Positions 5,214-52,529 of a stretch of 64,000 bases of DNA are shown one piece after another. Numbering within the stretch: the stretch's first letter is position 1; each line of letters opens with the position of its first letter. This DNA is from an uncultured Gammaproteobacteria bacterium (GTDB lineage: Bacteria > Patescibacteriota > Patescibacteriia > Magasanikbacterales > UBA922), in assembly GCA_964592785.1 (NCBI GenBank), contig CAZQHU010000004.1, forward strand, positions 72-64,071, in the 5' to 3' direction. The notes under the pieces are model-generated. The model did no database searches, was not told where the DNA came from, and was given only the letters and a program-made list of their open reading frames with translations. The translations under genes were made by a program, and so were the position numbers.

Positions 5214-6293
5214 ATGAAAAAAGAAATTCTCTTCTCCTACTTCCCCAAAAACACTGTCAAACGCTACCAAGAACTGGTGGCGGTTTTTGATAATCTAGAA
5301 AACGCTTGGAATACAAGTATTGAAGACCTAATTAAAATCGGCTGGGAAGAAAAATTGGCACAAGAATTTACTGACTGGAAAAATAAAATTGACGAAGAAA
5401 AAATTGCCAAAGTCTTGCAACAAGAAAATATACATTGCCTCACCAGAGATGATGAAGCTTATCCAGCCAGTCTAAAAGAACTTTATGATCCACCTTTTTG
5501 TCTTTTTGTCCGAGGTAAACTACCAAAAGATGGATTCAATCTGGCAGTGGTCGGAACGCGAAAATATACTACCTATGGCAAACAAGTGACTGAAGAATTG
5601 GTCACTGAACTTACCCAAAATGGTCTAAATATTATTTCTGGCCTAGCTCTGGGGATTGATGGTATCGCTCACGAAACTTGTTTACAAAATAATGGAAAAA
5701 CTGTTGCTATTCTTGGTACAGGAATAAATAATAACCACATCTACCCAAGTATACACAAAAATCTTGCCAATAGAATTATTGAAAACAATGGCGCGCTTAT
5801 TTCTGAATATCCGCCCGGGGCTCTGCCTTCCAAATTTGGTTTTCCCAAAAGAAATAGAATTATTGCCGGGCTTTCGCTTGGTGTCCTCGTCACCGAGGCA
5901 CCCGAAGACTCTGGGGCGCTCATCACCGCTCAAGTAGCCAATGACCTGGGGCGAGAAGTATTTGCTGTTCCTCATGCCCTTACTTCACCCAATGCCACTG
6001 GCACCAATAACTTAATAAAAAACGGCGCCCACCTGATAAACTCTGCCAAAGATATTTTGGAAATTTTAAATTTACAAGAGATCAAACAATTTATCGGCAA
6101 TCGCCAGATTTTACCCGACTCTCCTACTGAGGCCAAACTTCTGGAACATCTCGGTAAAGAACCTCACCATGTGGATGAAATAATCAAACTTACACAACTT
6201 GACAGCCCTACTGTAAATGCTACACTTACTATGATGGAAATGAAGGGAAAGGTGAGAAATCTTGGAGGAATGATGTATATTCTTGGTAAGTGA
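5214..6293 (+). CDS. dprA: DNA processing protein DprA/Smf
   Basis: Rossmann-like DprA core (VVGTRKYTTYG...GLALGIDGIAH...GSLITA-like) and a C-terminal winged-helix region. Confidence 0.85.
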   Translation: MKKEILFSYFPKNTVKRYQELVAVFDNLENAWNTSIEDLIKIGWEEKLAQEFTDWKNKIDEEKIAKVLQQENIHCLTRDDEAYPASLKELYDPPFCLFVRGKLPKDGFNLAVVGTRKYTTYGKQVTEELVTELTQNGLNIISGLALGIDGIAHETCLQNNGKTVAILGTGINNNHIYPSIHKNLANRIIENNGALISEYPPGALPSKFGFPKRNRIIAGLSLGVLVTEAPEDSGALITAQVANDLGREVFAVPHALTSPNATGTNNLIKNGAHLINSAKDILEILNLQEIKQFIGNRQILPDSPTEAKLLEHLGKEPHHVDEIIKLTQLDSPTVNATLTMMEMKGKVRNLGGMMYILGK

Positions 6294-6713
6294 GTAAGTT
6301 TGTAAGTGTATAAGTTTATAAGTATGTCATTAGTAAAAAACTGGACTGATCTCAATGCCTGGAAAAAAGCTCATCAACTAGTAATTGAAATTTATAAAAT
6401 AACAAAAACTTACCCTAAAGATGAACTTTATGCTTTAATTTCACAAATTCGACGTGCCTCTGTATCTGTAGCGGCCAACATAACAGAAGGTTTTCATCGA
6501 GAAACTAAAAAAGATAGATTACATTTTTATACAATGGCTTCAACTTCATTAGAAGAAGTAAAATATCATATAATTCTATCAAAAGACTTAGAATATATAG
6601 ATGTAAACAAAGCAAGAGAAATTTATTCTTTAGCAAATGAAGTTGGTAGACTACTCAGACGTTGGATGCAAACCCAAAAATAACTTACTCACTTACAAAC
6701 TTACATACTTAAT
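6286..6713. mobile_element. Cassette bounded by inverted GTAAGT/ACTTAC repeat arms and carrying a four-helix-bundle gene
   Basis: Left arm TAAGTGAGTAAGTTTGTAAGTGTATAAGTTTATAAGT (6286-6323). Right arm CTTACTCACTTACAAACTTACATACTTAAT (6684-6713). The arms share the 15-mer GTAAGTTTGTAAGTG in inverted orientation. Confidence 0.4.
6306..6683 (+). CDS. Four-helix-bundle protein (23S rRNA intervening-sequence protein / Avd-like family)
   Basis: ELYALISQIRRASVSVAANITEGF motif typical of TIGR02436/PF05635. The ATG at 6324 is more likely the start than the GTG at 6306. Confidence 0.75.
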   Translation: MYKFISMSLVKNWTDLNAWKKAHQLVIEIYKITKTYPKDELYALISQIRRASVSVAANITEGFHRETKKDRLHFYTMASTSLEEVKYHIILSKDLEYIDVNKAREIYSLANEVGRLLRRWMQTQK

Positions 6714-6724
6714 AACTATACCCT

Positions 6725-7424: not shown

Positions 7425-8810
7425 GTGGCTCAGTTTATGACACATGCACAAGCCCAAAAATTCATCCTTTCCTGGACCAAACTAGGAAGAAAAGAATACC
7501 TAAAAGACCCCAAAAAATGCGGTGTTTATCTTCAGCGTCTGCAATATTTTCTTGATTTAATTGGCAATCCGGAAAAACAAATCCCTCATTATATCCATGT
7601 CACTGGCACCAGTGGCAAAGGTTCAGTGTGTTTGATGCTAGATTCAATCTTACGTGCGGACAAACGAAAAGTAGGAACCATGACTTCTCCAGAAATTGGA
7701 CCCACTCAAACTCGTTGGCAAATAAACGGCCAAAAAATGACTGATAAAGAACTAGCAGAGATTATTACTAAATTAAAACCAAAGCTGGATCTATATTTAA
7801 AAACTTCACCCTACGATCCTATCTCACATTTTGAACTCATGACTGCCATCGGACTTTATTGGTTCGCGCAAAAAAAAGTAAAGTGGTGTATTTTGGAAGT
7901 AGGACTCGGTGGACGGTATGACTCAACTAATATAATTCCCCATAAAGATATTGCTGTCATTACTAATATCGGACTGGATCATACGGAAATACTAGGAAAA
8001 ACCAAAGCCAAGATTGCTTATGAAAAAGCAGGAATTATTAAGCCGGGATGTAAAGTATTCACCAATGAACAAAATAAAAAACTATTAAAAATATTTGAAA
8101 AAGAAATTACAAAAAACAAAACAAATACTAAACAAATACTCAAATTATCATGCCAAAAAAACTTACAAACTTACAAACTTACAAACTTACAAACTATTTT
8201 TAAATATCAAAACCATACTTACAATTTAAATACACTTGGGGAACATCAAGTTGGCAATGCTATTCTCGCAATTGAAATAACTAAATCACTCAAAATCCCC
8301 TACTCAACTATTAAACGTGGTTTAGAAAAAGTAAAACTACCACTGCGCATGGAGATAATTTCCAAAAATCCGCTGATAATTCTTGATGGCGCCCATAATC
8401 CTGATAAAATGAAAACGACAGTAGAAACAGTGCGTAAGTTAATAAGTATGCAAGTGAGTAAGTATAAAGAAAAATCACACTTACACACCTATACACTTAT
8501 ACACTTACTCACTGGATTTTCTGCTGACAAAGACCTAAAAACAATGTGTCAACAACTAAAAACCCTAAACCCAAAAACAATCGCCATCACCAAATTCACC
8601 TCCCCTTTCAAAAAATCTGCCAAACCAAAAGATATTGAAAAATTGGCTAAAAAATATTTCAAAAATACCAAAATCAAAATTTTTAGCAACCCTCAAACCG
8701 CTTATACCACTACAAAAAATAAACTCAAAAAAAATGATCTATTATTGGTCACTGGTTCACTATATTTGAGTGGTGAAATTCGCGCTAAATTGACAAAAGC
8801 AAAAAAATGA
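7425..8810 (+). CDS. folC: Folylpolyglutamate synthase / dihydrofolate synthase (Mur-ligase family), with two in-frame repeat insertions
   Basis: Motifs HVTGTSGKGS, EVGLGGRYDSTN, ITNIGLDHTEILG and DGAHNP. Start is GTG 7425 or ATG 7437. Confidence 0.75.
   Translation: MAQFMTHAQAQKFILSWTKLGRKEYLKDPKKCGVYLQRLQYFLDLIGNPEKQIPHYIHVTGTSGKGSVCLMLDSILRADKRKVGTMTSPEIGPTQTRWQINGQKMTDKELAEIITKLKPKLDLYLKTSPYDPISHFELMTAIGLYWFAQKKVKWCILEVGLGGRYDSTNIIPHKDIAVITNIGLDHTEILGKTKAKIAYEKAGIIKPGCKVFTNEQNKKLLKIFEKEITKNKTNTKQILKLSCQKNLQTYKLTNLQTIFKYQNHTYNLNTLGEHQVGNAILAIEITKSLKIPYSTIKRGLEKVKLPLRMEIISKNPLIILDGAHNPDKMKTTVETVRKLISMQVSKYKEKSHLHTYTLIHLLTGFSADKDLKTMCQQLKTLNPKTIAITKFTSPFKKSAKPKDIEKLAKKYFKNTKIKIFSNPQTAYTTTKNKLKKNDLLLVTGSLYLSGEIRAKLTKAKK
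8161..8194 (+). repeat. Tandem octamer (ACTTACAA)x4, in-frame within folC
   Basis: Direct reading. It encodes LQTYKLTNLQT. Confidence 0.7.
8430..8514. repeat. Palindromic GTAAGT-type element inserted in-frame in folC
   Basis: Left arm GTGCGTAAGTTAATAAGTATGCAAGTGAGTAAGTATAAAG. Right arm CACTTACACACCTATACACTTATACACTTACTCAC, which is the inverted complement of GTGAGTAAGT(G/A)TATAAG. Confidence 0.5.
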
Positions 8811-16912: not shown

Positions 16913-17617
16913 TCAAAATTTTTCCACTTTTATATCTGTAAAAACTTTACTCTGTTTCAAAATTATTTCCCGATTCTTGACCAATTCCAGTAAAGCCAAA
17001 AAAGTAATAATCACTTCTGTACGGTTAGCTGTATTATTTAAAATTTCTGAAAAACTAAAGCTCTTGGTTTTTTTTAATAAACTGGAAATATTTTTTATTT
17101 TCTCTTCCAAAAGCACGGTTTTGTCAATACTGGTTTGAGGTAAGGGTTTGGGAGGTTGTAAACGATGCAATAATTTTCTTAAACTTTCTTCCAAAGCAGT
17201 AAAAGACAAATCTTTGGGAGGAACAAAAGTTTCTGGCCGACGCGGTGGTTCTATTCTAAAAATTGATTTTTTCTGGCTCAACCAACTATGATCCAATTTT
17301 TTGGCTGTCTCTACAAACATTTTATAAAGACGTAGCTGTTCTTCCAAACTCGGACTTTCTTCTTCCTCAGGAGCAAACTGGGGTAAAAGATTTTTTGATT
17401 TCAAAAGTAACAAACGAGCCGCTACTACCAAAAAATCTGCCAATTCCTCAGGATTTTTATTTTCAATTTTTTCCAAATAATTCAAAAACTGTTCAGTGAC
17501 AGCCGAAAGTGAAACCTCACTAATATTTAATTTCTCTTCATCAATTAGAGACAAAAGTAAATCTAGTGGTCCAGAAAATTGTTCCAGTTGAAAATCTTTC
17601 ATGTTTTTAAATGTCAT
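16913..17617 (-). CDS. scpA: Segregation and condensation protein A
   Basis: ScpA N-terminal signature FSGPLDLLLSLIDEEKLNISEVSL. Confidence 0.85.
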   Translation of the reverse strand: MTFKNMKDFQLEQFSGPLDLLLSLIDEEKLNISEVSLSAVTEQFLNYLEKIENKNPEELADFLVVAARLLLLKSKNLLPQFAPEEEESPSLEEQLRLYKMFVETAKKLDHSWLSQKKSIFRIEPPRRPETFVPPKDLSFTALEESLRKLLHRLQPPKPLPQTSIDKTVLLEEKIKNISSLLKKTKSFSFSEILNNTANRTEVIITFLALLELVKNREIILKQSKVFTDIKVEKF

Positions 17618-17700
17618 TCCTGCGAAAGCAGGAATCTAATACTACCAGCGAGACCCCTGCTTCCGCAGGGGTGACACACTACTTTAGTGGCAACTTCGCT
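17613..17700. repeat. GTCATTCC-family short palindromic element; the scpA ATG lies inside its terminal GGAATGACA
   Basis: TGTCATTCCTGCGAAAGCAGGAATC hairpin with GAAA loop, plus a second hairpin CCCCTGC-TTCC-GCAGGGG. Near-identical to the copy at 30641. Confidence 0.5.
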
Positions 17701-19634: not shown

Positions 19635-20462
19635 TCAACCCAGGGTCACCACCCCCAGAGCCAGACAACCAAGATCGTCTTCGCTCGAGTCATCAAAACG
19701 CCAAATACAATCAAGGCCACCCTGGGCATCACGTCTCAAACTGAAATGCTGAGCATCATCAAACTTGGTACTGGTTCGCACGTACTTACCTTGGAGTGGC
19801 TGTGGTTCGCCAGTAATGAACTCATGGCTCTGGATGACGAGAGTGCCCAGAGACACGCTGCCATGGATAAGCTTGAAGTTCAAACCCAATTTCTGACCAA
19901 CAGTAGCAAGCAGATCTTTCTGCTCCTTCAAGGTTTTCCCGATACTGCCAGGCAACACGAACGGTGCACCAATGATGAGATGTCTGCCTTTTCCACGAAG
20001 CTCATTGGGGAGACTGCCGTGGGCAAACAACCTCATAAGATTCAAGTTATTGTGGCAGGGACCACAATACTTGGATGCCACCTGCACGTTGAACGGTAGA
20101 TGGAATTCCGTATCCACGAAACGTACGATGGGGGTGACCGGTTGTACACCATTGTCCGCGACAAAATCCCGCATGTGGCGCAAGTTCCCAGAAAGCCAGT
20201 TTGGCACACCTGGTAATTCCCCAATATCCAAATCTCTAAGTGGCTTGACAAACATGGACAAAGTCTCACCACGGAATCTACGCTCCACATTCATGGATGC
20301 GACTTGTAAGGCAGTGGGCGAAACGGTGACGAGATTTCTGGCTTGCAGATCACGAGCCACCCCCCAGTTACCCATCAACCAGTCGAACACTCGTTCGGCT
20401 TCCTCTGGTTTCTGCCTATCAATCCTTGCCAATTCATGGAAACTTCTTGGAAACAGTGACAT
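19635..20462 (-). CDS. Hypothetical protein encoded in a GC-rich, compositionally foreign segment
   Basis: Markedly GC-rich. Strong RBS GGAGGAAACCAAG-ATG, unlike native genes. No family recognised. Confidence 0.45.
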   Translation of the reverse strand: MSLFPRSFHELARIDRQKPEEAERVFDWLMGNWGVARDLQARNLVTVSPTALQVASMNVERRFRGETLSMFVKPLRDLDIGELPGVPNWLSGNLRHMRDFVADNGVQPVTPIVRFVDTEFHLPFNVQVASKYCGPCHNNLNLMRLFAHGSLPNELRGKGRHLIIGAPFVLPGSIGKTLKEQKDLLATVGQKLGLNFKLIHGSVSLGTLVIQSHEFITGEPQPLQGKYVRTSTKFDDAQHFSLRRDAQGGLDCIWRFDDSSEDDLGCLALGVVTLG

Positions 20463-20645: not shown

Positions 20646-20668
20646 AATAATTTCCCAATTTCCTAATT

Positions 20669-21745
20669 CTATAATTTCTTCAATTTCACCACAAAAAATC
20701 CTTCAATCTCCTTTGTCGGCATTATCCGCAAAGCTTTTTTCTGTACATCTTTATTTACTTCTTTATTCTTCCAGTTTTTAACGACTGACAGACGTTTCAT
20801 TTCTCCCAAATCAATATCAAGTAAACTACAATCTGGATTGCGTTCCATAAATTTTGTTATCTGCAATTCATTTTCTTCCGGGGAAAAAGTGCAAGTAGAA
20901 TACACTAGTGTTCCGCCGGGCTTAAGCGCGCTCCAGGCGGCGAGAAGAAGCTGCCACTGTTTATATGCCATTTCTTTTATTTTTTGTTCTTTCCAATAAC
21001 CATAAGTTTTAGAATCACCCTCTATAAATCTCGCTTCGGCACTGCACGGTGCGTCAAGAAGAATTTTATCAAAATATTCTGGGTACTCACGGGTCAAAGC
21101 TGCACCGTGTTCCATGCGGAGGATAAATTGCCAGTCGTCATTCTGAGCGGATCCGCCTATTGGCGGAGGAGTCGAAGAATCCCATTCATCTTCGACGAGA
21201 TCCTTCGACTGTGTCCCTTTGGGACTTTGCTCAGGATGACGGAATACTCCCAACACTTCCATATTGTGTTTCAGTTTGAAAAAACGAATCTTATTATTGT
21301 CATTCGCCACTAATTCCCCTGTTCCGCCCATCAACGCTGCAATTTGCGAAGTTTTACTACCTGGAGCAGCTGTGAGATCCAAAACCTTCTCCCCTGGCTG
21401 AGGATCCAATATCAATGGTGGCACCATACTGGCCAAACTTTGGATATAAATTTTACCTTCTTTGTAAATTTCCAAATCTGTCAATTCACGTTTTGATTTA
21501 TTTTTTAAAATGAAAGCATCTTTGTACCAAAGTACTCGTTCAAATTTAAAACCATTTTGATTTAAAATTTCTATTATATCTTCCTTTTTTGTTTTCAAAG
21601 TATTAATTCTAAAAGTTGTCGGTCGTTCTGTAAAAGTTGATTGTATTTGAATAGATAAAGAAGAACCCACAATTTCAGTGAGTCTTTCTAAAAATCTTTT
21701 GGGAATACCAGATAGTTGTTTTCTATTTTTCTTCATATAGAACAC
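20669..21745 (-). CDS. RNA cytosine-C5 methyltransferase (RsmB/RsmF/NOP2-Sun family) carrying an in-frame element insertion
   Basis: Motif IV DAPCS, motif VI VYSTCT, and the AdoMet-binding DLTAAPGSKT. Confidence 0.8.
   Translation of the reverse strand: MFYMKKNRKQLSGIPKRFLERLTEIVGSSLSIQIQSTFTERPTTFRINTLKTKKEDIIEILNQNGFKFERVLWYKDAFILKNKSKRELTDLEIYKEGKIYIQSLASMVPPLILDPQPGEKVLDLTAAPGSKTSQIAALMGGTGELVANDNNKIRFFKLKHNMEVLGVFRHPEQSPKGTQSKDLVEDEWDSSTPPPIGGSAQNDDWQFILRMEHGAALTREYPEYFDKILLDAPCSAEARFIEGDSKTYGYWKEQKIKEMAYKQWQLLLAAWSALKPGGTLVYSTCTFSPEENELQITKFMERNPDCSLLDIDLGEMKRLSVVKNWKNKEVNKDVQKKALRIMPTKEIEGFFVVKLKKL
21137..21240. mobile_element. GTCATTC-family palindromic element inserted in-frame in the methyltransferase CDS
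   Basis: TIRs GTCATTCTGAGC and GCTCAGGATGAC (11 of 12 positions complementary). Internal CCGCCTATTGGCGG, GATCCTTCGACT and TCAGGATGACG are identical to the intergenic copies at 29233 and 47341. The segment is locally GC-rich and the ORF reads through. Confidence 0.55.
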
Positions 21746-29232: not shown

Positions 29233-29362
29233 CAAAAACCGCCTATTGGCGGTTTTATTAATTTCTTAATTTCCTAGTTTTTAAATTTCTTCGTTACTGC
29301 AAAGGGATCCTTCGACTTCATTCGGCTAACGTCTCACTCCGTTCAGGATGACGCTCCCCTCG
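29233..29362. repeat. Family-B palindromic element / composite 3' module directly after the secY stop codon
   Basis: CCGCCTATTGGCGG terminator hairpin, AATTTCTTAATTTCC, GGGATCCTTCGACT, CATTCGGCTAACG, and TCAGGATGACGCTCCCCTCGTC. The same motif order occurs at 47341 and inside rsmB. Confidence 0.5.
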
Positions 29363-30634
29363 TCACATCCGATCATATTCATGCACCTCAATCTGTGCGT
29401 CAATTTGTTTAGCGGTTTCAATAGCTACTGACACCACGATTAACAGCGAAGTACCACCAATTACCAAAGATTGAGTACCAGTGAAAGCACGTAAAATAAG
29501 TGGCAGAATAGCAATAAGACCTAAAAACAAAGCCCCCACAAAAATCAACCGACTCATAGTATGCCCCAAATATTCTTCTGTCTGTTTGCCTGGACGAATG
29601 CCAGGAATAAAACCACCTTGTCTTTGCAAATTTTCGGCAATTTTTTGTGGATGAAAAATAACTGCCGTGTAAAAATAAGTAAAACCAAATACCAAAACAA
29701 AATACAGAACAGCGTAAAATAATTGATTATTAAATAAATCTACCACCCAACGTGATAAAGACCCAATAAATCCAGCTTTATTAACCAAAAACTGGGCAAC
29801 CATAGAAGGAAAAACGATAATGGAAATCGCAAAAATAATCGGAATCACTCCAGCCATATTTACACGTAAGGGTAAATGGGTACTTGAACCACCATACATT
29901 TTATTACCTCTCACTTGTTTGGCATAAGAAACCGGAATATTTCTTTGACCTTCACTAATAACTACCACACCAACTACAGTAACAACGGCGATAAAAATAA
30001 ACAATAAATATGTATATAAATCAGCCGGATTATAATTTATTACAGCTTGTTGAATAGTACTAGGAAGACTAGCAACTATACCAGAAAAAATCAAAAGAGA
30101 AATACCATTGCCAATCTTTTGTTCAGTAATAAGTTCACCAATCCACATCAAAAAAACTGTGCCAGCAGTAATAGTGATCATTATCAAGGTCAACTTGACA
30201 GCTGTAAGATCGGGAATAATTCCATATTGTGACTGGCCCAAAAGTTTTATCATACCAAAAGCTTGCAATAAAGCCAAAGGTACAGTGGCCAAACGGGTAT
30301 ACATGCTAATTTTTTGTTGCCCACTTTCACCCTCTTTGGACAATTCTTCCAAACTGGGAACAATCATGGTCAAAAGCTGAAAAATAATAGAAGCAGTAAT
30401 ATAAGGTGCCACACCTAACATCACTATGGAAAAATTTTCCATAGTACCACCAGAAAAAACATTGAGCAAACCCAAAATTTGATTACTGGAAAGAAATTGT
30501 TTCAAAGCATCGGCATCAATACCCGGAACCGGAATATGTGCCACCAAACGAAAAACAACCAACATCCCCAAAACAAAAAATACTTTATTTCTCAAATCTT
30601 TAATTTTCCAAACTCGAAGAATTTTTTCCCACAT
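29363..30634 (-). CDS. secY: Preprotein translocase SecY
   Basis: 10-TM SecY fold and its position after rplO. Confidence 0.9.
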   Translation of the reverse strand: MWEKILRVWKIKDLRNKVFFVLGMLVVFRLVAHIPVPGIDADALKQFLSSNQILGLLNVFSGGTMENFSIVMLGVAPYITASIIFQLLTMIVPSLEELSKEGESGQQKISMYTRLATVPLALLQAFGMIKLLGQSQYGIIPDLTAVKLTLIMITITAGTVFLMWIGELITEQKIGNGISLLIFSGIVASLPSTIQQAVINYNPADLYTYLLFIFIAVVTVVGVVVISEGQRNIPVSYAKQVRGNKMYGGSSTHLPLRVNMAGVIPIIFAISIIVFPSMVAQFLVNKAGFIGSLSRWVVDLFNNQLFYAVLYFVLVFGFTYFYTAVIFHPQKIAENLQRQGGFIPGIRPGKQTEEYLGHTMSRLIFVGALFLGLIAILPLILRAFTGTQSLVIGGTSLLIVVSVAIETAKQIDAQIEVHEYDRM

Positions 30635-43808: not shown

Positions 43809-45341
43809 AAAGGAGGTGATCCATCCCCAGCTTCCGCTAGGGATGCCTTGTTACGACTTCACCCTGATCACTGACCCTGCCTTAGTCCCCATAAGGAGCC
43901 TTTGGGCGTTGCCAGCTTTCGTGGTGTGACGGGCGGTGAGTACAAGACCCGAGAACGTATTCACCGCGCCGTATCTGATGCGCGGTTACTAGCGAATCCA
44001 ACTTCATGAGGACGAATTTCAGCCCTCAATCCGAACTGAGGCTAGCTTTTTGGGATTAGCTCCATCTCGCGATTTAGCAACCCTTTGTACTAGCCATTGT
44101 ATCATGCGTGTAGCCCTGGACGTAAGAGCCATGCTGATTTGACGTCGTCCCCGCCTTCCTCCCGTTTAAACGGGCAGTCTCGTGTGTACATTTAACACAC
44201 AATAGGGGTTGCGCTCGTTACCAGACTTAACTGTACACCTCACGGCACGAGCTGACGGCAACCATGCAGCACCTATCTAACACCTTCGAAAGCGGGCAAT
44301 GTTTCCATCGCCTTGCAGTTAGTAGTTGAGCCCAGGTAAGGTTCGCCGCGTACCGTCGAATTAAACCGCATGATCCTCCGCTTGTGCGGGTCCCCGTCTA
44401 TTCCTTTGAGTTTTAACCTTGCGGCCGTACTCCCCAGGCGGTGTACTTAACGCGTTTGCTTTTTAAAACGGCACTGAGAGGGTCGATACTCCCAATACCT
44501 AGTACACATCGTTTAGGGCGTGGACTACTAGGGTATCTAATCCTATTCGCTACCCACGCTTTGGTCCATGAGTGTCAGGCATGTTATAGCAAGCTGCCTT
44601 CGCCTTTGGTGTTCCTATCGATATCAGCGCTTATTACGACTACACCGATAGTTCCGCTTGCCTCTCCCAGCCTCCAGTCTGATAGTATCAACAGCAGTCC
44701 CGGAGTTAAGCCCCGGGATTTAACCATTGACTTTTCAGACAACCTGCGGACGCTTTACGCCCAATGAATCCGGATAACGTTTGAGGTCTCTGTATTACCG
44801 CTGCTGCTGGCACAGAGTTAGCAACCTCTTATTCCTAGGGTACCGTCACAAATTCGTCCCCTATAAAAGCAGTTTACACCCCGAAGGGCTTCATCCTGCA
44901 CGCGGCGTCGCTCCATCAGACTTTCGTCCATTGTGGAATATTCTTGACTGCAGCCTCCCGTAGGAGTCTGGGCAGTATCTCAGTCCCAGTGAGGCAGGTC
45001 ACGCTCTCACGCCTGCTACCCGTCATAGCCTTGGTGGTCTATTACACCGCCAACTAGCTGATAGGACATAGGCCTTTCTCCAAGTGATAAATCTTTAAAT
45101 GCGAATGACTTTTGTCCCCGCATTGCCATCGGGTATTAATCCACCTTTCGGTGGGCTATCCCCGTCTTGGAGGTAAGTTACCAATGTGTTACTCACCCGT
45201 TTGCCGCTCGTAACCCGTCCAACACTCTACCAACATTTATAAAAAATATTTTTAGAGTGTTGGTCGGGCACGTCGCTCGACTTGCATGCCTTAAACACGC
45301 CGCCAACGTTCATCCTGAGCCAGGATCAAACTCTCAGTAAA
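43809..45341 (-). rRNA. rrs: 16S ribosomal RNA, about 1.53 kb, not linked to a 23S
   Basis: 5' end GAGTTTGATCCTGGCTCAG (rc at 45315-45334). 3' end GGATCACCTCCTTT (rc at 43809-43822). Internal universal segments such as GTGCCAGCAGCCGCGGTAATAC (rc at about 44790) are present. Confidence 0.9.
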
Positions 45342-46561: not shown

Positions 46562-47308
46562 CTAGTCATTCTTTCTTTCACGCCATCTTTTAATTTTCGC
46601 ATGATCTCCACTTAATAAGACCGGAGGCACTTTCCACCCACGAAAATCTGCTGGTTTTGTGTACTGCGAATATTCAATTTCAATTTCATTTGATTTTTTG
46701 TTTTCTTGATTTTTTGTTTTCTTGTTAAACGTTTCTTCACTCAAACTCTCTTCATTCCCCAAAACTCCGGGGATCAAACGTGACACAGCTTCAATAATAA
46801 TCAAAGCCCCCAACTCACCCCCAGCCAAAACATAAGGCCCAATCGAAATCTCTTCATCTACCATATAGTCTGTCACTCGCTGATCAACACCTTCATAACG
46901 CCCACAAACAAAAGTTATTTCATCCAACTTGGAAAATTGTTCTGCCATTCGCTGATCAAACTGTTTACCACGAGGACTTAATAAAACTGTCTTTTTGGAC
47001 TTCGGACTACGGACTACAGACTTAAAAATTGCTTTTAATCGTCCCAAACCATTAGTCTGTCGTCTGTAGTCTGTGGTCAAAGCATCGAGCGAAGCGAGCG
47101 CTTTAAATATGGGCTCTGGTTTCATGACCATCCCCGCTCCCCCGCCATACGGTGTATCATCTACAGTTTTGTGATTATCAGTTGTAAAATCACGCAAATT
47201 GACTGGATTAATTTTGATTAAATTATTTTTCTGCGCACGATGAATAATTGTTTCGTCACAGTAGTCGGAAATTATTTTGGGGAAAATGGTGATGACATTA
47301 AATTTCAT
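46562..47308 (-). CDS. trmD: tRNA (guanine37-N1)-methyltransferase TrmD carrying an in-frame palindromic insertion
   Basis: MKFNVITIFP...DDTPYGGGAGMVMKPEP signature. An extra ~25-30 aa lie between PEPIFKALASL and VLLSPRGK. Confidence 0.85.
   Translation of the reverse strand: MKFNVITIFPKIISDYCDETIIHRAQKNNLIKINPVNLRDFTTDNHKTVDDTPYGGGAGMVMKPEPIFKALASLDALTTDYRRQTNGLGRLKAIFKSVVRSPKSKKTVLLSPRGKQFDQRMAEQFSKLDEITFVCGRYEGVDQRVTDYMVDEEISIGPYVLAGGELGALIIIEAVSRLIPGVLGNEESLSEETFNKKTKNQENKKSNEIEIEYSQYTKPADFRGWKVPPVLLSGDHAKIKRWRERKND
46996..47101. mobile_element. Palindromic element inserted in-frame in trmD
   Basis: Inverted repeats GGACTACGGACTACAGAC / GTCTGTAGTCTGTGGTC. CATCGAGCGAAGCGAGCGC resembles the CGAGCGTAGCGAGG core of the GTCATTCC family. 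Confidence 0.5.
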
Positions 47309-47340
47309 AACAAACGTATCTTAACAAAAAATAAACAAAA

Positions 47341-47437
47341 AATCAACCCGCCTCATCGGCGGGTTTTGAATTTCTCAATTTCTTAGTTTCTTTTAAAACC
47401 ACGGGATCCTTCGTTTCACTCAGGATGACGCTACGCG
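47341..47437. repeat. Family-B composite element directly after the fusA stop codon
   Basis: CCCGCCTCATCGGCGGG terminator hairpin, AATTTCTCAATTTCTTAG, GGGATCCTTCGTTTCACTCAGGATGACGCTACGCGTC. Confidence 0.5.
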
Positions 47438-49520: not shown

Positions 49521-49646
49521 TTCATTCCGAGCGTAGCGAGGAATCTTTCTCACCTCGTACATATCGGAGTGTTTAGTTATTGATTTAAAAAAGTTTGTAA
49601 TAGGAAAGATTCCTCACCCTCGCTTGAACTCGGGTTCGGAATGAAC
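49521..49646. repeat. GTCATTCC-family MITE/REP-like element filling the rpsG-fusA spacer
   Basis: TIRs TTCATTCCGAGCGTAGCGAGGAATCTTTC and GAAAGATTCCTCACCCTCGC...CGGAATGAAC, with a central GATTTAAAAAAGTTT. Its terminus CGGAATGAATAAACTT lies immediately 5' of the fusA ATG. Confidence 0.6.
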
Positions 49647-50128: not shown

Positions 50129-50262
50129 TTCATTCCGAGCGTAGCGAGGAATCCTTCTTGCCTCGAACGTAGTCGGAATGTTTATTTTATGATTTAAAAA
50201 AGTTTTAATTTAAGAAAGATTCCTCGTTTAGTCCGTGCGAACGGACTCACTCGGAATGAACC
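50129..50262. repeat. GTCATTCC-family MITE/REP-like element filling the rpsL-rpsG spacer
   Basis: Near-identical to 49521-49646: TTCATTCCGAGCGTAGCGAGGAATCC...GAAAGATTCCTCG...CTCGGAATGAAC. Its terminus lies 9 nt upstream of the rpsG ATG. Confidence 0.6.
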
Positions 50263-50699: not shown

Positions 50700-50817
50700 T
50701 ATTCATTCCGAACGAAGTGAGGAATCTTTTCCAACACGTACGTTCTTAAATAAAATTAAATAAAATAAAATTATTTTTTCTTAATAAAGATCTCTCACCC
50801 TTTGGGCTCGAGATGAA
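50700..50817. repeat. Degenerate third copy of the GTCATTCC-family element upstream of rpsL
   Basis: TTCATTCCGAACGAAGTGAGGAATC...GATCTCTCACCC...CTCGAGATGAAC. Confidence 0.45.
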
Positions 50818-51009
50818 CAAAAAAACGTCCTTTAAAGACGCTAGAAAAAACTATTTTTTCAAACGTCTGCACCTCTTCGGCGCACATTCACCTTGTCCGC
50901 CATAATAGCGGGGGTTACTACGTTGACCACATTCTACAACAAAGCCAAAAACTTGTCAAGTCCCACCCGCAACGCCTGAGCAAGCTCATGCTTACGATGG
51001 CGGGCCGGC

Positions 51010-51038: not shown

Positions 51039-51140
51039 TATCAGTCATTACTGTGTCTGTCTTGGACACGATTGACAATCTAGGCACTGGCAGGAAGCCA
51101 GGCTAGTGAATTCATTTCACGGAAGTGAGGAGGAAACACA

Positions 51141-51653
51141 ATGATCCGCATCATCTTGGCCATGACCATGATCCTGTCCCTGGCCGCCTGCAACGACGAC
51201 ATCAAGGCCGAGCTGGCCCAGACCAAGGCCGATCTGGCTCGGGTCCAGTCGGATCTCAACCAGGTGGTCGAGTACCACCGCCTGACCCAGGCGATCCAGG
51301 AGGAGACCATGCTCCTCCAGGATCTGCGCGAACAGACCCAGACTCTGAACAAGGACCTGGACTCCCTGGCCAATCGCGCCATCCTGGCACGGTCAGCACT
51401 GCCTGCGCAGGCCTACCTCTGTAAGGGCAACCGTTCTTGCGAGGAAGAGACGGCAGCCAAGGCCAAGATCGAGGCTGTGAAGATGAATGAGGAAGTCGAC
51501 ACCCTCAATGCCCGATCCAAGCAACTGGGCGAGGAGACCAGCCTCCACATCACTCGACACAAGCAGGCGGAGACGGCCATGAAGGTCGCACGGGCGGCGC
51601 TCCCACCCGATCTGCAAGAACGCCTCCTCGGAGTAAGGGAGTCTTCCCACTAG
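51141..51653 (+). CDS. Coiled-coil lipoprotein encoded in a strongly GC-rich foreign island
   Basis: Signal peptide with lipobox LSLAAC. Strong RBS GAGGAGGAAACACA-ATG. GC content is far above the background. Overlapping antisense ORFs are artefacts of high GC. Confidence 0.6.
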   Translation: MIRIILAMTMILSLAACNDDIKAELAQTKADLARVQSDLNQVVEYHRLTQAIQEETMLLQDLREQTQTLNKDLDSLANRAILARSALPAQAYLCKGNRSCEEETAAKAKIEAVKMNEEVDTLNARSKQLGEETSLHITRHKQAETAMKVARAALPPDLQERLLGVRESSH

Positions 51654-51772
51654 CTCTTTCGCCGTGACGACATACAGTGTCTCTCTGTACCCCGACCCAG
51701 TCGGGAACGCCAGAGGACCCGTGTCACTCACGGCTCACCCTCTATATTTTTCACGAAGAATATTGAGGATAA

Positions 51773-52450: not shown

Positions 52451-52529
52451 AATTAGATTAAAATTGAAAAATTAATAAACTAAAAAATTTTAATTTCTTA
52501 ATTTTCCAATTTCCGAATTTCTCTGTATA

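Follow-up and report, generated by a model that had tools for sequence, protein, structure and literature searches.

The segment at positions 21136-21241 of the window, i.e., the whole stretch of 64,000 nucleotides analysed here, is probably a non-autonomous repeat, palindromic and of the REP type, which landed in frame in a loop of an RsmB/RsmF-family methyltransferase and left the enzyme intact. What was observed concerns its anatomy, its membership of a DNA family, the reading frame, its absence from orthologues, its position in a loop, its age and its recurrence; its translation, its neutrality and its mode of spread are inferred. The gene and the parts of the element are as follows:

20669-21745, minus strand: RsmB/RsmF-family RNA m5C methyltransferase gene (ORF listing, Pfam, PDB relatives, AF2 model)
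21136-21241, no strand assigned: whole element, a head-to-head heterodimer (tags outside) of two CGTC-tagged REP-type modules (sequence, fold, absence from orthologues)
21136-21181, plus strand: left module, ATTCT type (CGTC 21136-21139, ATTCT 21140-21144 / AGAAT 21176-21180)
21153-21166, no strand assigned: side hairpin CCGCC-TATT-GGCGG in the left-module loop (same 14-mer as the terminator hairpin 29239-29252)
21182-21198, no strand assigned: inter-module spacer, with a CCA tail at its start and part of the central stem (sequence, fold)
21199-21241, minus strand: right module, ATCCT type (CGTC tag 21241-21238, then GTCATCCTGAGC)

The element is a near-perfect palindrome of 106 bp, in which about 38 of 40 pairs are kept. 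The first-pass annotation of this DNA had described a segment of 104 bp with 12-bp terminal inverted repeats, of which the arms were located (GTCATTCTGAGC at 21137-21148 and GCTCAGGATGAC at 21229-21240, complementary at 11 of 12 positions) and the length was revised, the match being 12 of 13 over the span 21136-21241 with the flanking C and G. Given that 104 bp is not divisible by three, the in-frame unit is taken as 35 codons, i.e., 105 nt with one tag base included. CGTC stands at both ends (21136-21139, and 21241-21238 on the minus strand), and the three internal motifs lie where they had been placed (CCGCCTATTGGCGG at 21153-21166, GATCCTTCGACT at 21199-21210 and TCAGGATGACG at 21231-21241). 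Both modules follow the order of a tag, an AT-initiated stem, the core GAGC…GTCGA and the complementary stem, built as a stem of 5 bp, a tandem G.A mismatch and 2 bp below a large structured loop; on the minus strand, the right module continues into the hairpin GTCCCAAAGGGAC (21225-21213) and then GTCGAAGGATC (21209-21199).

The mRNA strand of the element folds into a four-way junction of -59 kcal/mol (z = -5.8, with 0 of 200 shuffles as stable), which is the most stable 110-nt fold anywhere in the window, and its outer stem holds a C.A mismatch on the mRNA strand, or T.G if antisense. The segment had also been described as locally rich in GC, as is the case (0.51 in the element vs 0.38 in the gene). 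The element contains no separate ORF, and the Rfam covariance models gave no gathering-score match in the window or in 16 module-carrying loci, with only chance-level matches on the element itself (E above 4).

The longest ORF of the host gene has 358 amino acids from a GTG start at 21745, or 355 from the ATG at 21736, and its product matches Pfam PF01189 (6.8e-44), as well as PF17125 and PF22458, which agrees with the earlier assignment to the RsmB/F family. Its PDB relatives are 1ixk, 3m6u and 2frx, and the AF2 model (pLDDT 86.5) has the fold of the m5C methyltransferases, with Foldseek TM values of 0.74-0.86 against 1ixk, Nop2 and RsmF. The motifs DLTAAPGSKT, DAPCS and STCT are all intact, and DAPCS (motif IV, residues 231-235) lies downstream of the insert, as had been noted. 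The host of this gene is a tiny groundwater-type bacterium.

The frame of the gene is the sole open sense frame across the element, and the earlier estimate of roughly 35 added residues was accurate. The encoded peptide, RHPEQSPKGTQSKDLVEDEWDSSTPPPIGGSAQND, covers about residues 169-203 (the whole element, about 169-204), in a region with 52 residues in the query vs 14 in 1ixk. Given the lack of an in-frame stop and a length that keeps the frame, the element would be transcribed and translated with the gene, and the conservation of this frame suggests that it adds about 35 hydrophilic, disordered residues to the protein. The AF2 model, confident elsewhere, gives residues 176-202 a pLDDT below 50 and places the insert between the helix 152-164 and the strand 205-210. 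It is thus predicted to form a disordered surface loop between helix B and strand 3, compatible with the fold, in line with the surface position that the first-pass annotation had proposed to check.

The insert is common to four independent assemblies of the species (L004-L007), which differ by only two substitutions within the element; in strain L004, the right-module hairpin has T in place of C, which keeps the pairing as G.U on the mRNA strand. In a scan of metagenomes, the window's own species was not among the recovered sequences, and no empty site at population level came to light. When orthologues were aligned, the segment was absent from many of them, including P0006 and P0033, the loop having 12 amino acids or fewer in 54 of 120 and being enlarged in the other 66, by several repeat families and, on the preferred reading, in independent events, and the DNA of the empty site was found in L003 and L010. 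No direct repeat that would represent a target-site duplication is visible in the flanks of the window copy (…GTATTC/CGTCAT…ATGACG/ACTGG), where the first-pass annotation had proposed to look for one.

A 73%-identical orthologue, P0002 of L001, carries a copy of equal length that has decayed towards A+T and is still open, a state found in only 1.6% of composition-matched shuffles. Between L001 and the window, nucleotide identity is 56% in the copy and 76% elsewhere in the gene, and amino-acid identity is 28% in the insert and 77% elsewhere, with 34 of the 47 changes in the L001 copy running from G/C to A/T. The encoded peptide is not conserved, and the insertion is old, not recent, and common to at least one sister lineage. 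An orthologue with the segment at the amino-acid level and DNA unlike the repeats had been named as the contrary case; the DNA of P0002 is still recognisable as a decayed repeat, which keeps the module cores and has lost the palindrome. In L011, only a remnant of the right end is left in an intact gene.

Neutral sites differ by about 41-44% between the window and L001, and the near-perfect palindrome of the window hints, at such a divergence, that the copy is not purely neutral and owes its upkeep to structural selection, gene conversion or a renewed insertion. Alternatively, nearly all of the change may have taken place on the AT-drifting branch of L001.

The module is not confined to this gene, given that its generic pattern occurs 11 times in the window vs 0.025 expected, and the dispersed repeat family described earlier is thereby upheld. 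The other copies discussed here are:

29306-29353, minus strand: single ATCCT-type module, 3' UTR, 10 nt past the stop of the 423-aa gene 29363-30634 (SecY, a name taken from the gene table of L004)
47405-47430, minus strand: single short-form module CGTCATCCTGAGTGAAACGAAGGATC, 3' UTR, directly past the fusA stop
49522-49644, no strand assigned: head-to-head dimer, TTC-tagged ATTCC variant, fills the rpsG-fusA spacer (-43 kcal/mol, z = -3.7)
50130-50259, no strand assigned: head-to-head dimer, ATTCC variant, fills the rpsL-rpsG spacer (-53 kcal/mol, z = -7.9)
50703-50820, no strand assigned: head-to-head heterodimer, ATTCC + ATCTC, upstream of rpsL (fold z = -2.0, weak)
17612-17677, no strand assigned: CGTC-1-like canonical head-to-head heterodimer, TGTCATTCCTGCGAAAGCAGGAATC … GACCCCTGCTTCCGCAGGGGTGACA, with 8-bp stems and 4-nt loops, intergenic

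Two intergenic loci, at 29233 and 47341, had been presented as copies of the whole element, and each proved to be a single module followed by a terminator. At 29233, the three motifs match those of the element exactly and keep their order, as claimed, with the left arm missing and an AT-rich spacer of 53 nt; the module at 29306-29353 is followed there by a stretch rich in AATTTCY and then by the terminator hairpin 29239-29252. The claim of identity did not hold at 47341, where the hairpin is different (CCGCCTCATCGGCGG), only GGATCCTTCG…CTCAGGATGACG is common to the element, and the terminator hairpin 47340-47356 follows the module. The CGTC tag is also found at 29353 and 47430, and both of these modules are in sense orientation immediately past stop codons. 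The counterparts of the whole element are the dimers at 49522-49644, 50130-50259, 50703-50820 and 17612-17677. Three of these fill consecutive spacers of the str operon, carry the TTC variant of the tag and end 7-8 nt ahead of each start codon. There are no near-identical pairs among the copies of the window. As for CCGCCTATTGGCGG, it has two positions there, both exact and on the plus strand (0.13 expected with up to two mismatches).

Beyond the window, the module family was found at more than 119 genomic loci of many phyla (Patescibacteria, Acidobacteriota, Clostridia, Bacteroidota, Fibrobacterota, Verrucomicrobiota, Actinomycetota and others) and in 92 stretches of viral contigs. Across phyla, GTCAT is preceded by T in 121 modules and by C in 26 (together 147 of 152), and the two bases after the module are CC in 35, TG in 32 and TC in 30; the tail is CCA after the left rsmF module and CCC, CCT, CTC or CTT after other copies. 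The stems begin and end in AT (ATTCT/AGAAT, ATCCT/AGGAT, ATTCC/GGAAT and others), short modules have 25 nt and long-loop modules 42-47 nt, and the apex is a GNA triloop, an extra hairpin of 15-35 nt or a run of CGNAG pentamers. Within modules, the stems covary (C-G 103, T-A 31, mismatched 5; Fisher p = 2e-25 in a Y/R contingency table), and since this covariation is found within modules and not between arms, the unit that is copied or constrained would be the single hairpin module.

These modules pair in a consistent manner, with an inverted partner downstream in 88 and upstream in 15 of the 152, and 52 head-to-head vs 5 tail-to-tail dimers in genomes. Heterodimers account for 42 of the 52 genomic dimers and for 37 of 40 from viral contigs, most often as ATCCT+ATTCT, which is the pair of the rsmF element. 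The family is also found in frame in RecG, LeuRS, Mfd, DnaE and TrpCF.

Some resemblances of the element were considered and set aside. The side hairpin CCGCC…GGCGG as a captured terminator was weakened by the presence of a nearly identical long-loop left module in three unrelated metagenome contigs (L131-L133). Kinship with the 5' end of the 16S rRNA (GATCCTGGCTCAGGATGAAC) was attributed to chance because the stem sequence varies freely within the family, and this variability also led us to drop the resemblances to relaxase nic-sites (YATCCTG) and to the terminal repeats of insertion sequences. Since the frame is conserved and neither intein motifs nor a match to an Rfam intron were found, the readings as an intein, an intron or an rRNA-type intervening sequence were rejected.

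It is hardly conceivable that we are dealing with a normal protein loop peculiar to this lineage, or with an artefact of assembly, which resembles the repeats by accident. The length of this loop is indeed highly variable among orthologues, but both arms contain a full module of a pattern far more frequent in the window than expected, the rise in GC and the fold both set the segment apart, four independent assemblies carry it, and the decayed copy of L001 retains the module cores. The proposal that the element is kept for its nucleic-acid structure, as an RNase III-type site or a translation brake that sets the level of RsmF, with the str copies as processing or stabilising signals, is improbable, though less so. 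It would account for a palindrome that is near-perfect despite its old origin, for the G.U pair produced on the mRNA strand by the sole hairpin substitution in L004, for the dimers that precede the starts in three str operon spacers and for the sense-oriented modules right after stops, and many REPs have been argued to act as RNA by Di Nocera et al. (PMC3733652). However, the palindrome was lost in L001 and the copy mostly deleted in L011 with both genes intact, the polarity of the dimer is reversed in L226, the mismatch of the outer stem is C.A on the mRNA and T.G on the antisense strand, and 54 of the 120 orthologues have no insert at all.

A somewhat more serious possibility, still rather doubtful, is that the mobilising machinery specifically targets a sequence in this stretch of rsmF, or that one ancient insertion was overwritten again and again by gene conversion from other copies in the genome, instead of the loop receiving many independent hits filtered by selection. 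The window (WIN), L008 and L009, where other subfamilies occupy the same loop, all share the 3' junction …AATGAC + one codon + TGG, WIN and L008 agree at both junctions, and the enlargements seen in 66 of the 120 orthologues all fall at this single site. Against this, the 5' junction and the frame of L009 differ, the heterodimer recurs in L226 with its polarity reversed and with a different junction, three codons ahead of the Trp as in P0098/P0118, and L227 has a single module. Unrelated repeat families of the PHPNPPL.GEG type also occupy this loop, further loops of the protein have been hit, and the empty alleles are scattered over the tree. A filter of permissive loops is, by itself, an incomplete account of the 3' junction common to three subfamilies.

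Under the preferred reading of an in-frame landing by a REP-type repeat, two inverted hairpin modules with unpaired CGTC tags outside, in a REPIN-like arrangement, would have hit the rsmF codons for a surface loop that joins helix B to strand 3 in the Rossmann-like domain and points away from the side of the cofactor and the substrate. In the sister lineage, the copy would later have drifted towards A+T with its frame kept open. The element is read here as selfish or neutral DNA, which lasts wherever selection tolerates it, its persistence being presumably limited to in-frame, stop-free copies within permissive loops, and, by analogy with the GTAG REPs, it may spread through the recognition of a single-stranded DNA hairpin and its tag.

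A broader proposal can be put forward only tentatively, in which the rsmF insert belongs to a family of polar hairpin dimers that is borne by phages, spans the bacteria (more than 10 phyla) and depends on a widely conserved mobilising or binding factor. Such a family would be marked by the CGTC/TGTC tag, the ATYCY stem and the GAGC…GTCGA core, typically in an ATCCT/ATTCT heterodimer. If so, a core conserved even in the minimal genomes of Patescibacteria would imply an undiscovered factor, encoded by hosts or phages, and the recurrent in-frame landings of the family would, quite generally, supply the housekeeping proteins of these bacteria with disordered loops, such as the RsmF loop (66 of 120 filled), RecG, LeuRS, Mfd, DnaE, TrpCF and possibly TrmD.

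Palindromic repeats in frame were already known from Rickettsia, and it is the repeat family and the host group that are new here. Literature searches with the DNA motifs and typical encoded peptides found nothing relevant, and a search on Patescibacteria and palindromic in-frame repeats found no paper on this lineage. The phenomenon of selfish DNA inside genes is now extended from Rickettsia to Patescibacteria and tied to a hairpin-repeat family of many phyla and viral contigs. For annotation, this accounts for odd low-complexity inserts and length variation in conserved CPR proteins, and for many short ORFs that are spurious (VILSEAKDL, RHPERS… and …AQDDK types). The study of mobile DNA gains a well-defined covarying module, a consistent heterodimer rule and a series of filled, decayed and empty alleles, all of which can be used to seek the enzyme that spreads CGTC REPs and to measure the ageing of inserts.

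Among the known systems, REPINs consist of two inverted hairpins with an unpaired tetranucleotide tag, in a dimer of about 100 bp in which hairpin and tag form the recognised unit. They and the GTAG REPs are mobilised by RAYT (Y1 HUH) transposases and are described as extragenic. The rsmF element is likewise a tagged dimer of inverted hairpins, with CGTC/TGTC instead of GTAG as its tag. It also resembles the classical MITEs, which are sometimes fused in frame, in being small and non-autonomous with terminal inverted repeats, and differs from them in the lack of any visible target-site duplication, in arms that each form a covarying hairpin, and in a module that many phyla have in common and that does not stem from an insertion sequence of one lineage.

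The Rickettsia palindromic elements, RPE-1 and relatives (Ogata et al. 2000, reviewed in PMC10969869), are also palindromic non-coding repeats found in frame in unrelated housekeeping genes, where they are translated and the fold of the protein accommodates them, and the rsmF element is, like the intragenic RPEs, absent from orthologues and leaves its host protein intact. On the other hand, the RPE-1 type has about 150 bp, encodes a conserved peptide and is found in Rickettsia only (PMC10969869), whereas the rsmF peptide is not conserved (28% to the orthologous copy) and its DNA module extends across phyla.

The closest likeness is to the super-family of CGTC-tagged REPs (Di Nocera, De Gregorio & Rocco 2013, BMC Genomics 14:522, PMC3733652), which takes in Rickettsia RPE-4 and RPE-6 and Neisseria dRS3. 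Given that the present modules show the architecture of this super-family, for which in-frame copies are documented, the analogy with RPEs drawn in the first-pass annotation holds and is closer than had been claimed. According to that study (PMC3733652), these REPs are palindromes of 20-40 bp with an A-T stem start and a CGTC tag (TGTC and CCTC being allowed), have a three-nt tail of consensus CCA at the untagged end, occur mostly as head-to-head dimers, often heterodimers, with spacers of 20-100 bp, have in-frame intragenic copies in many genes and no dedicated transposase or known RAYT, and are reported from five phyla; the families CGTC-1 to CGTC-4 have stems of 8-9 bp and loops of 4-5 nt.

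As compared with that account, the rsmF element has the unpaired CGTC tag, the AT-initiated stem and the head-to-head heterodimer in common, and the present modules also form mostly head-to-head dimers, preferably heterodimers, with spacers of 20-100 bp, lie just downstream of ORFs, have no ORF of their own, would likewise lack a linked transposase, and include in-frame copies with peptides of the RHP…/…ND type. The differences are a stem of 5 bp, a tandem G.A and 2 bp in place of the 8-9 continuous pairs of CGTC-1 to -4, an apex with a triloop, an extra hairpin or pentamer runs in place of a loop of 4-5 nt, long-loop modules slightly larger than the stated size (42-47 nt), and a host range wider than the five reported phyla, with viral contigs in addition; the rsmF peptide type is missing from the list of intragenic copies. 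Given that the dimer at 17612-17677 shows the stem and loop of CGTC-1 to -4 and the rsmF element lacks them, the latter, as compared on the described features, is treated here as a new variant within the super-family, outside families 1-4.

The inserted element lies within a gene of the m5C RNA methyltransferases, and its terminal inverted repeats, GTCATTCTGAGC (21137-21148) and GCTCAGGATGAC (21229-21240), are found where the first-pass annotation had placed them, with 11 of 12 positions complementary between the arms.

20669-21745, minus strand: rsmF, the host gene, RsmB/RsmF family (Pfam PF01189, 6.8e-44, and PF17125)

When the flanking C and G are included, the element spans 21136-21241 and carries CGTC at each outer end. 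The three internal motifs named in that annotation are all present, and the segment is GC-rich relative to the gene, as claimed (0.51 against 0.38); the proposed length of 104 bp is incompatible with the frame, and the unit translated is of 35 codons. On the mRNA strand, the element folds into a four-way junction, formed by an outer stem, two side hairpins and a long central stem, at -59 kcal/mol (z = -5.8, with 0 of 200 shuffles equally stable), which ranks as the most stable of the 110-nt folds across the 64-kb window, above the tRNA and rRNA segments.

Each half of the element is a module, a tagged hairpin with the following order of parts: a tag [C/T]GTC, an AT-initial stem (ATTCT or ATCCT), the bases GAGC, an apex that varies, the bases GTCGA, the pairing strand of the stem (AGAAT or AGGAT) and a C. 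In the short forms, the apex is a GNA triloop that two pairs and a tandem G.A mismatch close; in the long forms, a hairpin takes the place of this triloop. In the copies compared, the stem variants ATTCT/AGAAT, ATCCT/AGGAT, ATTCC/GGAAT and ATCTC/GAGAT are all self-complementary. No Rfam family matched the element or its modules in searches with the window and other module-bearing loci. The right arm (GATCCT…GCTCAGGATGAC) is similar to the universal 5' end of the 16S rRNA, GATCCTGGCTCAGGATGAAC (45309-45328), a resemblance judged to be due to chance, given that the stem varies across family members.

The host protein has solved relatives in 1ixk, RsmF and Nop2, and the alignment to 1ixk places 52 residues of the query against 14 of the archaeal protein at the insert region. 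Its AlphaFold model, built with 40 orthologues, superposes on m5C methyltransferases with a TM of 0.74-0.86 and has a mean pLDDT of 86.5, the low-confidence parts being the N-terminus and residues 176-202, a predicted coil joining helix 152-164 to strand 205-210. We take this loop to be the segment of the class I methyltransferase fold that links strand 3 to the helix following strand 2, on the face of the sheet away from the cofactor. The SAM loop and the DAPCS and STCT motifs are undamaged, and four independent assemblies of the species carry the same insert, with two changes, both synonymous.

The history of the insertion can be followed in 120 orthologues, mostly of Candidatus Magasanikbacteria, in which the basal loop has approximately 10 residues (ADE[RK]PDW.F[TK]). 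The loop has at most 12 residues in 54 orthologues and more than 20 in 58; in around 20 its peptides are typical of the CGTC-type repeat super-family, and in around 24 the main loop is filled by another repeat type, PHPNPPL.GEG. The DNA of selected alleles revealed the following contents:

L003 and L010: loop empty
L008 and L009: other subfamilies, both folding as near-perfect palindromic hairpins
L226: the same ATTCT/ATCCT heterodimer (two inverted modules with unlike stems) in reverse polarity, with its junction three codons before the conserved Trp, not one
L227: one decayed module
L001 (protein P0002, 73% identical): a copy of exactly equal length
L011: right end alone left

The L001 copy is 56% identical to that of the window at the nucleotide level and 28% at the amino acid level, against 76% and 77%, respectively, for the rest of the gene, and 34 of the 47 differences are from G/C to A/T. 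The insertion is therefore older than the split of these lineages, and ancient. The AT-rich L001 copy is open in the gene frame, as are only 1.6% of composition-matched shuffles, and this is the best available support for the probable translation of the insert: the encoded peptide is not conserved, and it is the read-through that appears to be under selection. The window copy keeps approximately 38 of 40 pairs of its palindrome, and neutral sites differ by ~41-44% between the two alleles, so that either almost all the change occurred on the AT-drifting L001 branch or the palindrome is maintained by something. The junction, …AATGAC plus one codon plus TGG, is common to the window allele, L008 and L009, which leaves room for either a target preference or replacement by conversion. 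Judged from the flanks of the filled allele, the insert has no visible target-site duplication. Other RsmF loops also have repeat-derived inserts, at alignment columns 81-100, 189-199, 410-475 and 488-508 (LLRQGYGG, PSPLL..GEG and AKATAGK types), and several unrelated GC-rich repeat families appear to be translated in these Patescibacteria.

The generic module pattern has 11 matches in the window, against 0.025 expected from Markov simulations, and 10 of the 11 are convincing. The intergenic copies at 29233 and 47341, which had been described as sharing the motifs in identical sequence and order, are family members, but each is a single module with a terminator, and the hairpin at 47341 differs.

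17612-17677: canonical CGTC-1-like head-to-head heterodimer (tags outside) in the spacer between two minus-strand genes, with 8-bp stems (ATTCCTGC and ACCCCTGC) and 4-nt loops
29306-29353: single module directly past the secY stop, followed by a terminator
47405-47430: single module directly past the fusA stop, followed by a terminator
49522-49644: inverted pair filling the rpsG-fusA spacer
50130-50259: inverted pair filling the rpsL-rpsG spacer
50703-50820: inverted pair filling the str operon spacer 5' of rpsL

The architecture of the dimer at 17612-17677 is unlike that of the rsmF element, and the super-family is therefore represented in the genome by at least two architectures. The three str operon spacers consist almost wholly of head-to-head dimers of the TTC-tagged ATTCC variant, each of which stops 7-8 nt upstream of the start codon (GGAATGAA….ATG), a placement that may be due to a function in processing or translation, or to preferential insertion there. 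For fusA, the start given by mechanical ORF calling, ATG 49525, falls within a repeat tag, and the N-terminal sequence points to ATG 49513 as the real start.

Other repeats are present in the window. The trmD gene (46562-47308, minus strand) has an in-frame palindromic insert at 46998-47080 (~-40 kcal/mol), of a family other than that of the rsmF element, with GGACTAC/GGACTTC heptamers making up its inverted arms; residues 76-99 of TrmD have no equivalent in the solved TrmD 8byh, and the window would thus encode two RNA methyltransferases in which a palindrome is translated. A direct repeat of ~33 nt, rich in AATTTCY, occurs at 20647-20679, 29258-29290 and 52490-52522, with a gene end or repeat module on one side and a terminator hairpin on the other, and 8-mer arrays of the ACTTACAA type, direct and inverted, lie at 6283-6327, 6677-6720, 8147-8205 and 8473-8515. 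Between rsmF and aspS, a 275-aa ORF (19635-20462, minus strand) is found in this species only, with no Pfam hit on record; aspS is near rsmF in the relatives L001 and L009, with an intervening 73-aa ORF in L009, and AspRS has 476 aa without a GAD domain here, against 585-587 aa with it in relatives. A GC-rich island at ~51080-51770 (0.63-0.65 against ~0.37 for the window), possibly foreign DNA, has ORFs overlapping on both strands, including a 170-aa lipoprotein-like coiled-coil ORF (51141-51653, plus strand) amid minus-strand genes.

The distribution and recurrence of the family are wider than expected. When one genome was scanned for each species, at least 119 loci with modules were found, the matches listed belonging to Acidobacteriota, Clostridia, Verrucomicrobiota, Patescibacteria, Bacteroidota, Fibrobacterota, Actinomycetota, Rickettsiales, Chloroflexota and others. 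Among these matches, the two variable stem positions of 139 distinct modules are C-G in 103, T-A in 31 and mismatched in five (Fisher p ~2e-25), and GTCAT is preceded by T in 121 of 152 modules and by C in 26. As the arms are internally complementary yet differ from each other, constraint acts on the single hairpin; of the 152 listed modules, 88 have an inverted partner on the downstream side within 160 nt and only 15 on the upstream side, and the usual unit is therefore the tags-outside dimer. Heterodimers make up 42 of the 52 dimers among the genome matches listed and 37 of 40 in viral contigs, the most frequent being ATCCT + ATTCT, the same pair as in rsmF. The family is also present in viral contigs of IMG/VR (92 stretches), and dense head-to-head arrays of this heterodimer in predicted viral contigs (L174, 14 modules in 14 kb; L168, 11 in 4.2 kb; and L160) make phages a possible vehicle of spread across phyla. 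Three unrelated contigs from metagenomes carry a long-loop module almost identical to that in rsmF (…GAGCGGATCCGCC-NNNN-GGCGGAGGAGTCGAAGAATC). In many modules, those of L089 and L064 among them, the apex is made up of tandem CGNAG/TCGAAG pentamers, with up to nine pentamer-type units in L089, which suggests that module loops grow through slippage. In other phyla, members are in frame in RecG (L090), LeuRS (L128), Mfd (L091), DnaE (L067) and TrpCF (L111).

The element would be a non-autonomous DNA, selfish or neutral, which is probably translated into a disordered surface loop, and the intragenic copies may be the survivors of a selection that removes frameshifts, stops and insertions in structured regions. 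GNA triloops form very stable DNA mini-hairpins, and the logic of tag and hairpin, together with the GNA-triloop core, resembles the substrates of HUH/Y1 single-strand-specific enzymes, a likeness that may serve only as a lead.

The closest known relatives belong to the CGTC-tagged REP super-family defined by Di Nocera, De Gregorio and Rocco (2013; PMC3733652). In that account, the tag is an unpaired CGTC (also TGTC or CCTC), the stems open with A-T, the tail has 3 nt, near CCA, and the units, located just 3' of ORFs, are chiefly head-to-head dimers, often heterodimers, with spacers of 20-100 bp; no dedicated transposase is reported there for CGTC REPs. The same study equates CGTC-1 with RPE-6 and CGTC-4 with RPE-4 of Rickettsia conorii, and CGTC-1 with the Neisseria dRS3, and describes dozens of in-frame intragenic copies, some of them in RNA methyltransferases, with the peptide RHPREGGDP…LDPRLRGG as an example (PMC3733652). 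The first-pass annotation, which had compared an in-frame GTCATTC-family element with the Rickettsia palindromic elements, described a real feature and interpreted it correctly, and its analogy is borne out by a super-family with matching features that includes RPE-4 and RPE-6; given these shared features, it is essentially a statement of homology. The rsmF element belongs within an already described kind of repeat, and what is new is the host group and the module architecture: set against the super-family as described, it is alike in its tag, A-T stem, dimer orientation and heterodimer state, but has a short mismatched stem and a large structured apex in place of a stem of 8-9 bp and a loop of 4-5 nt.
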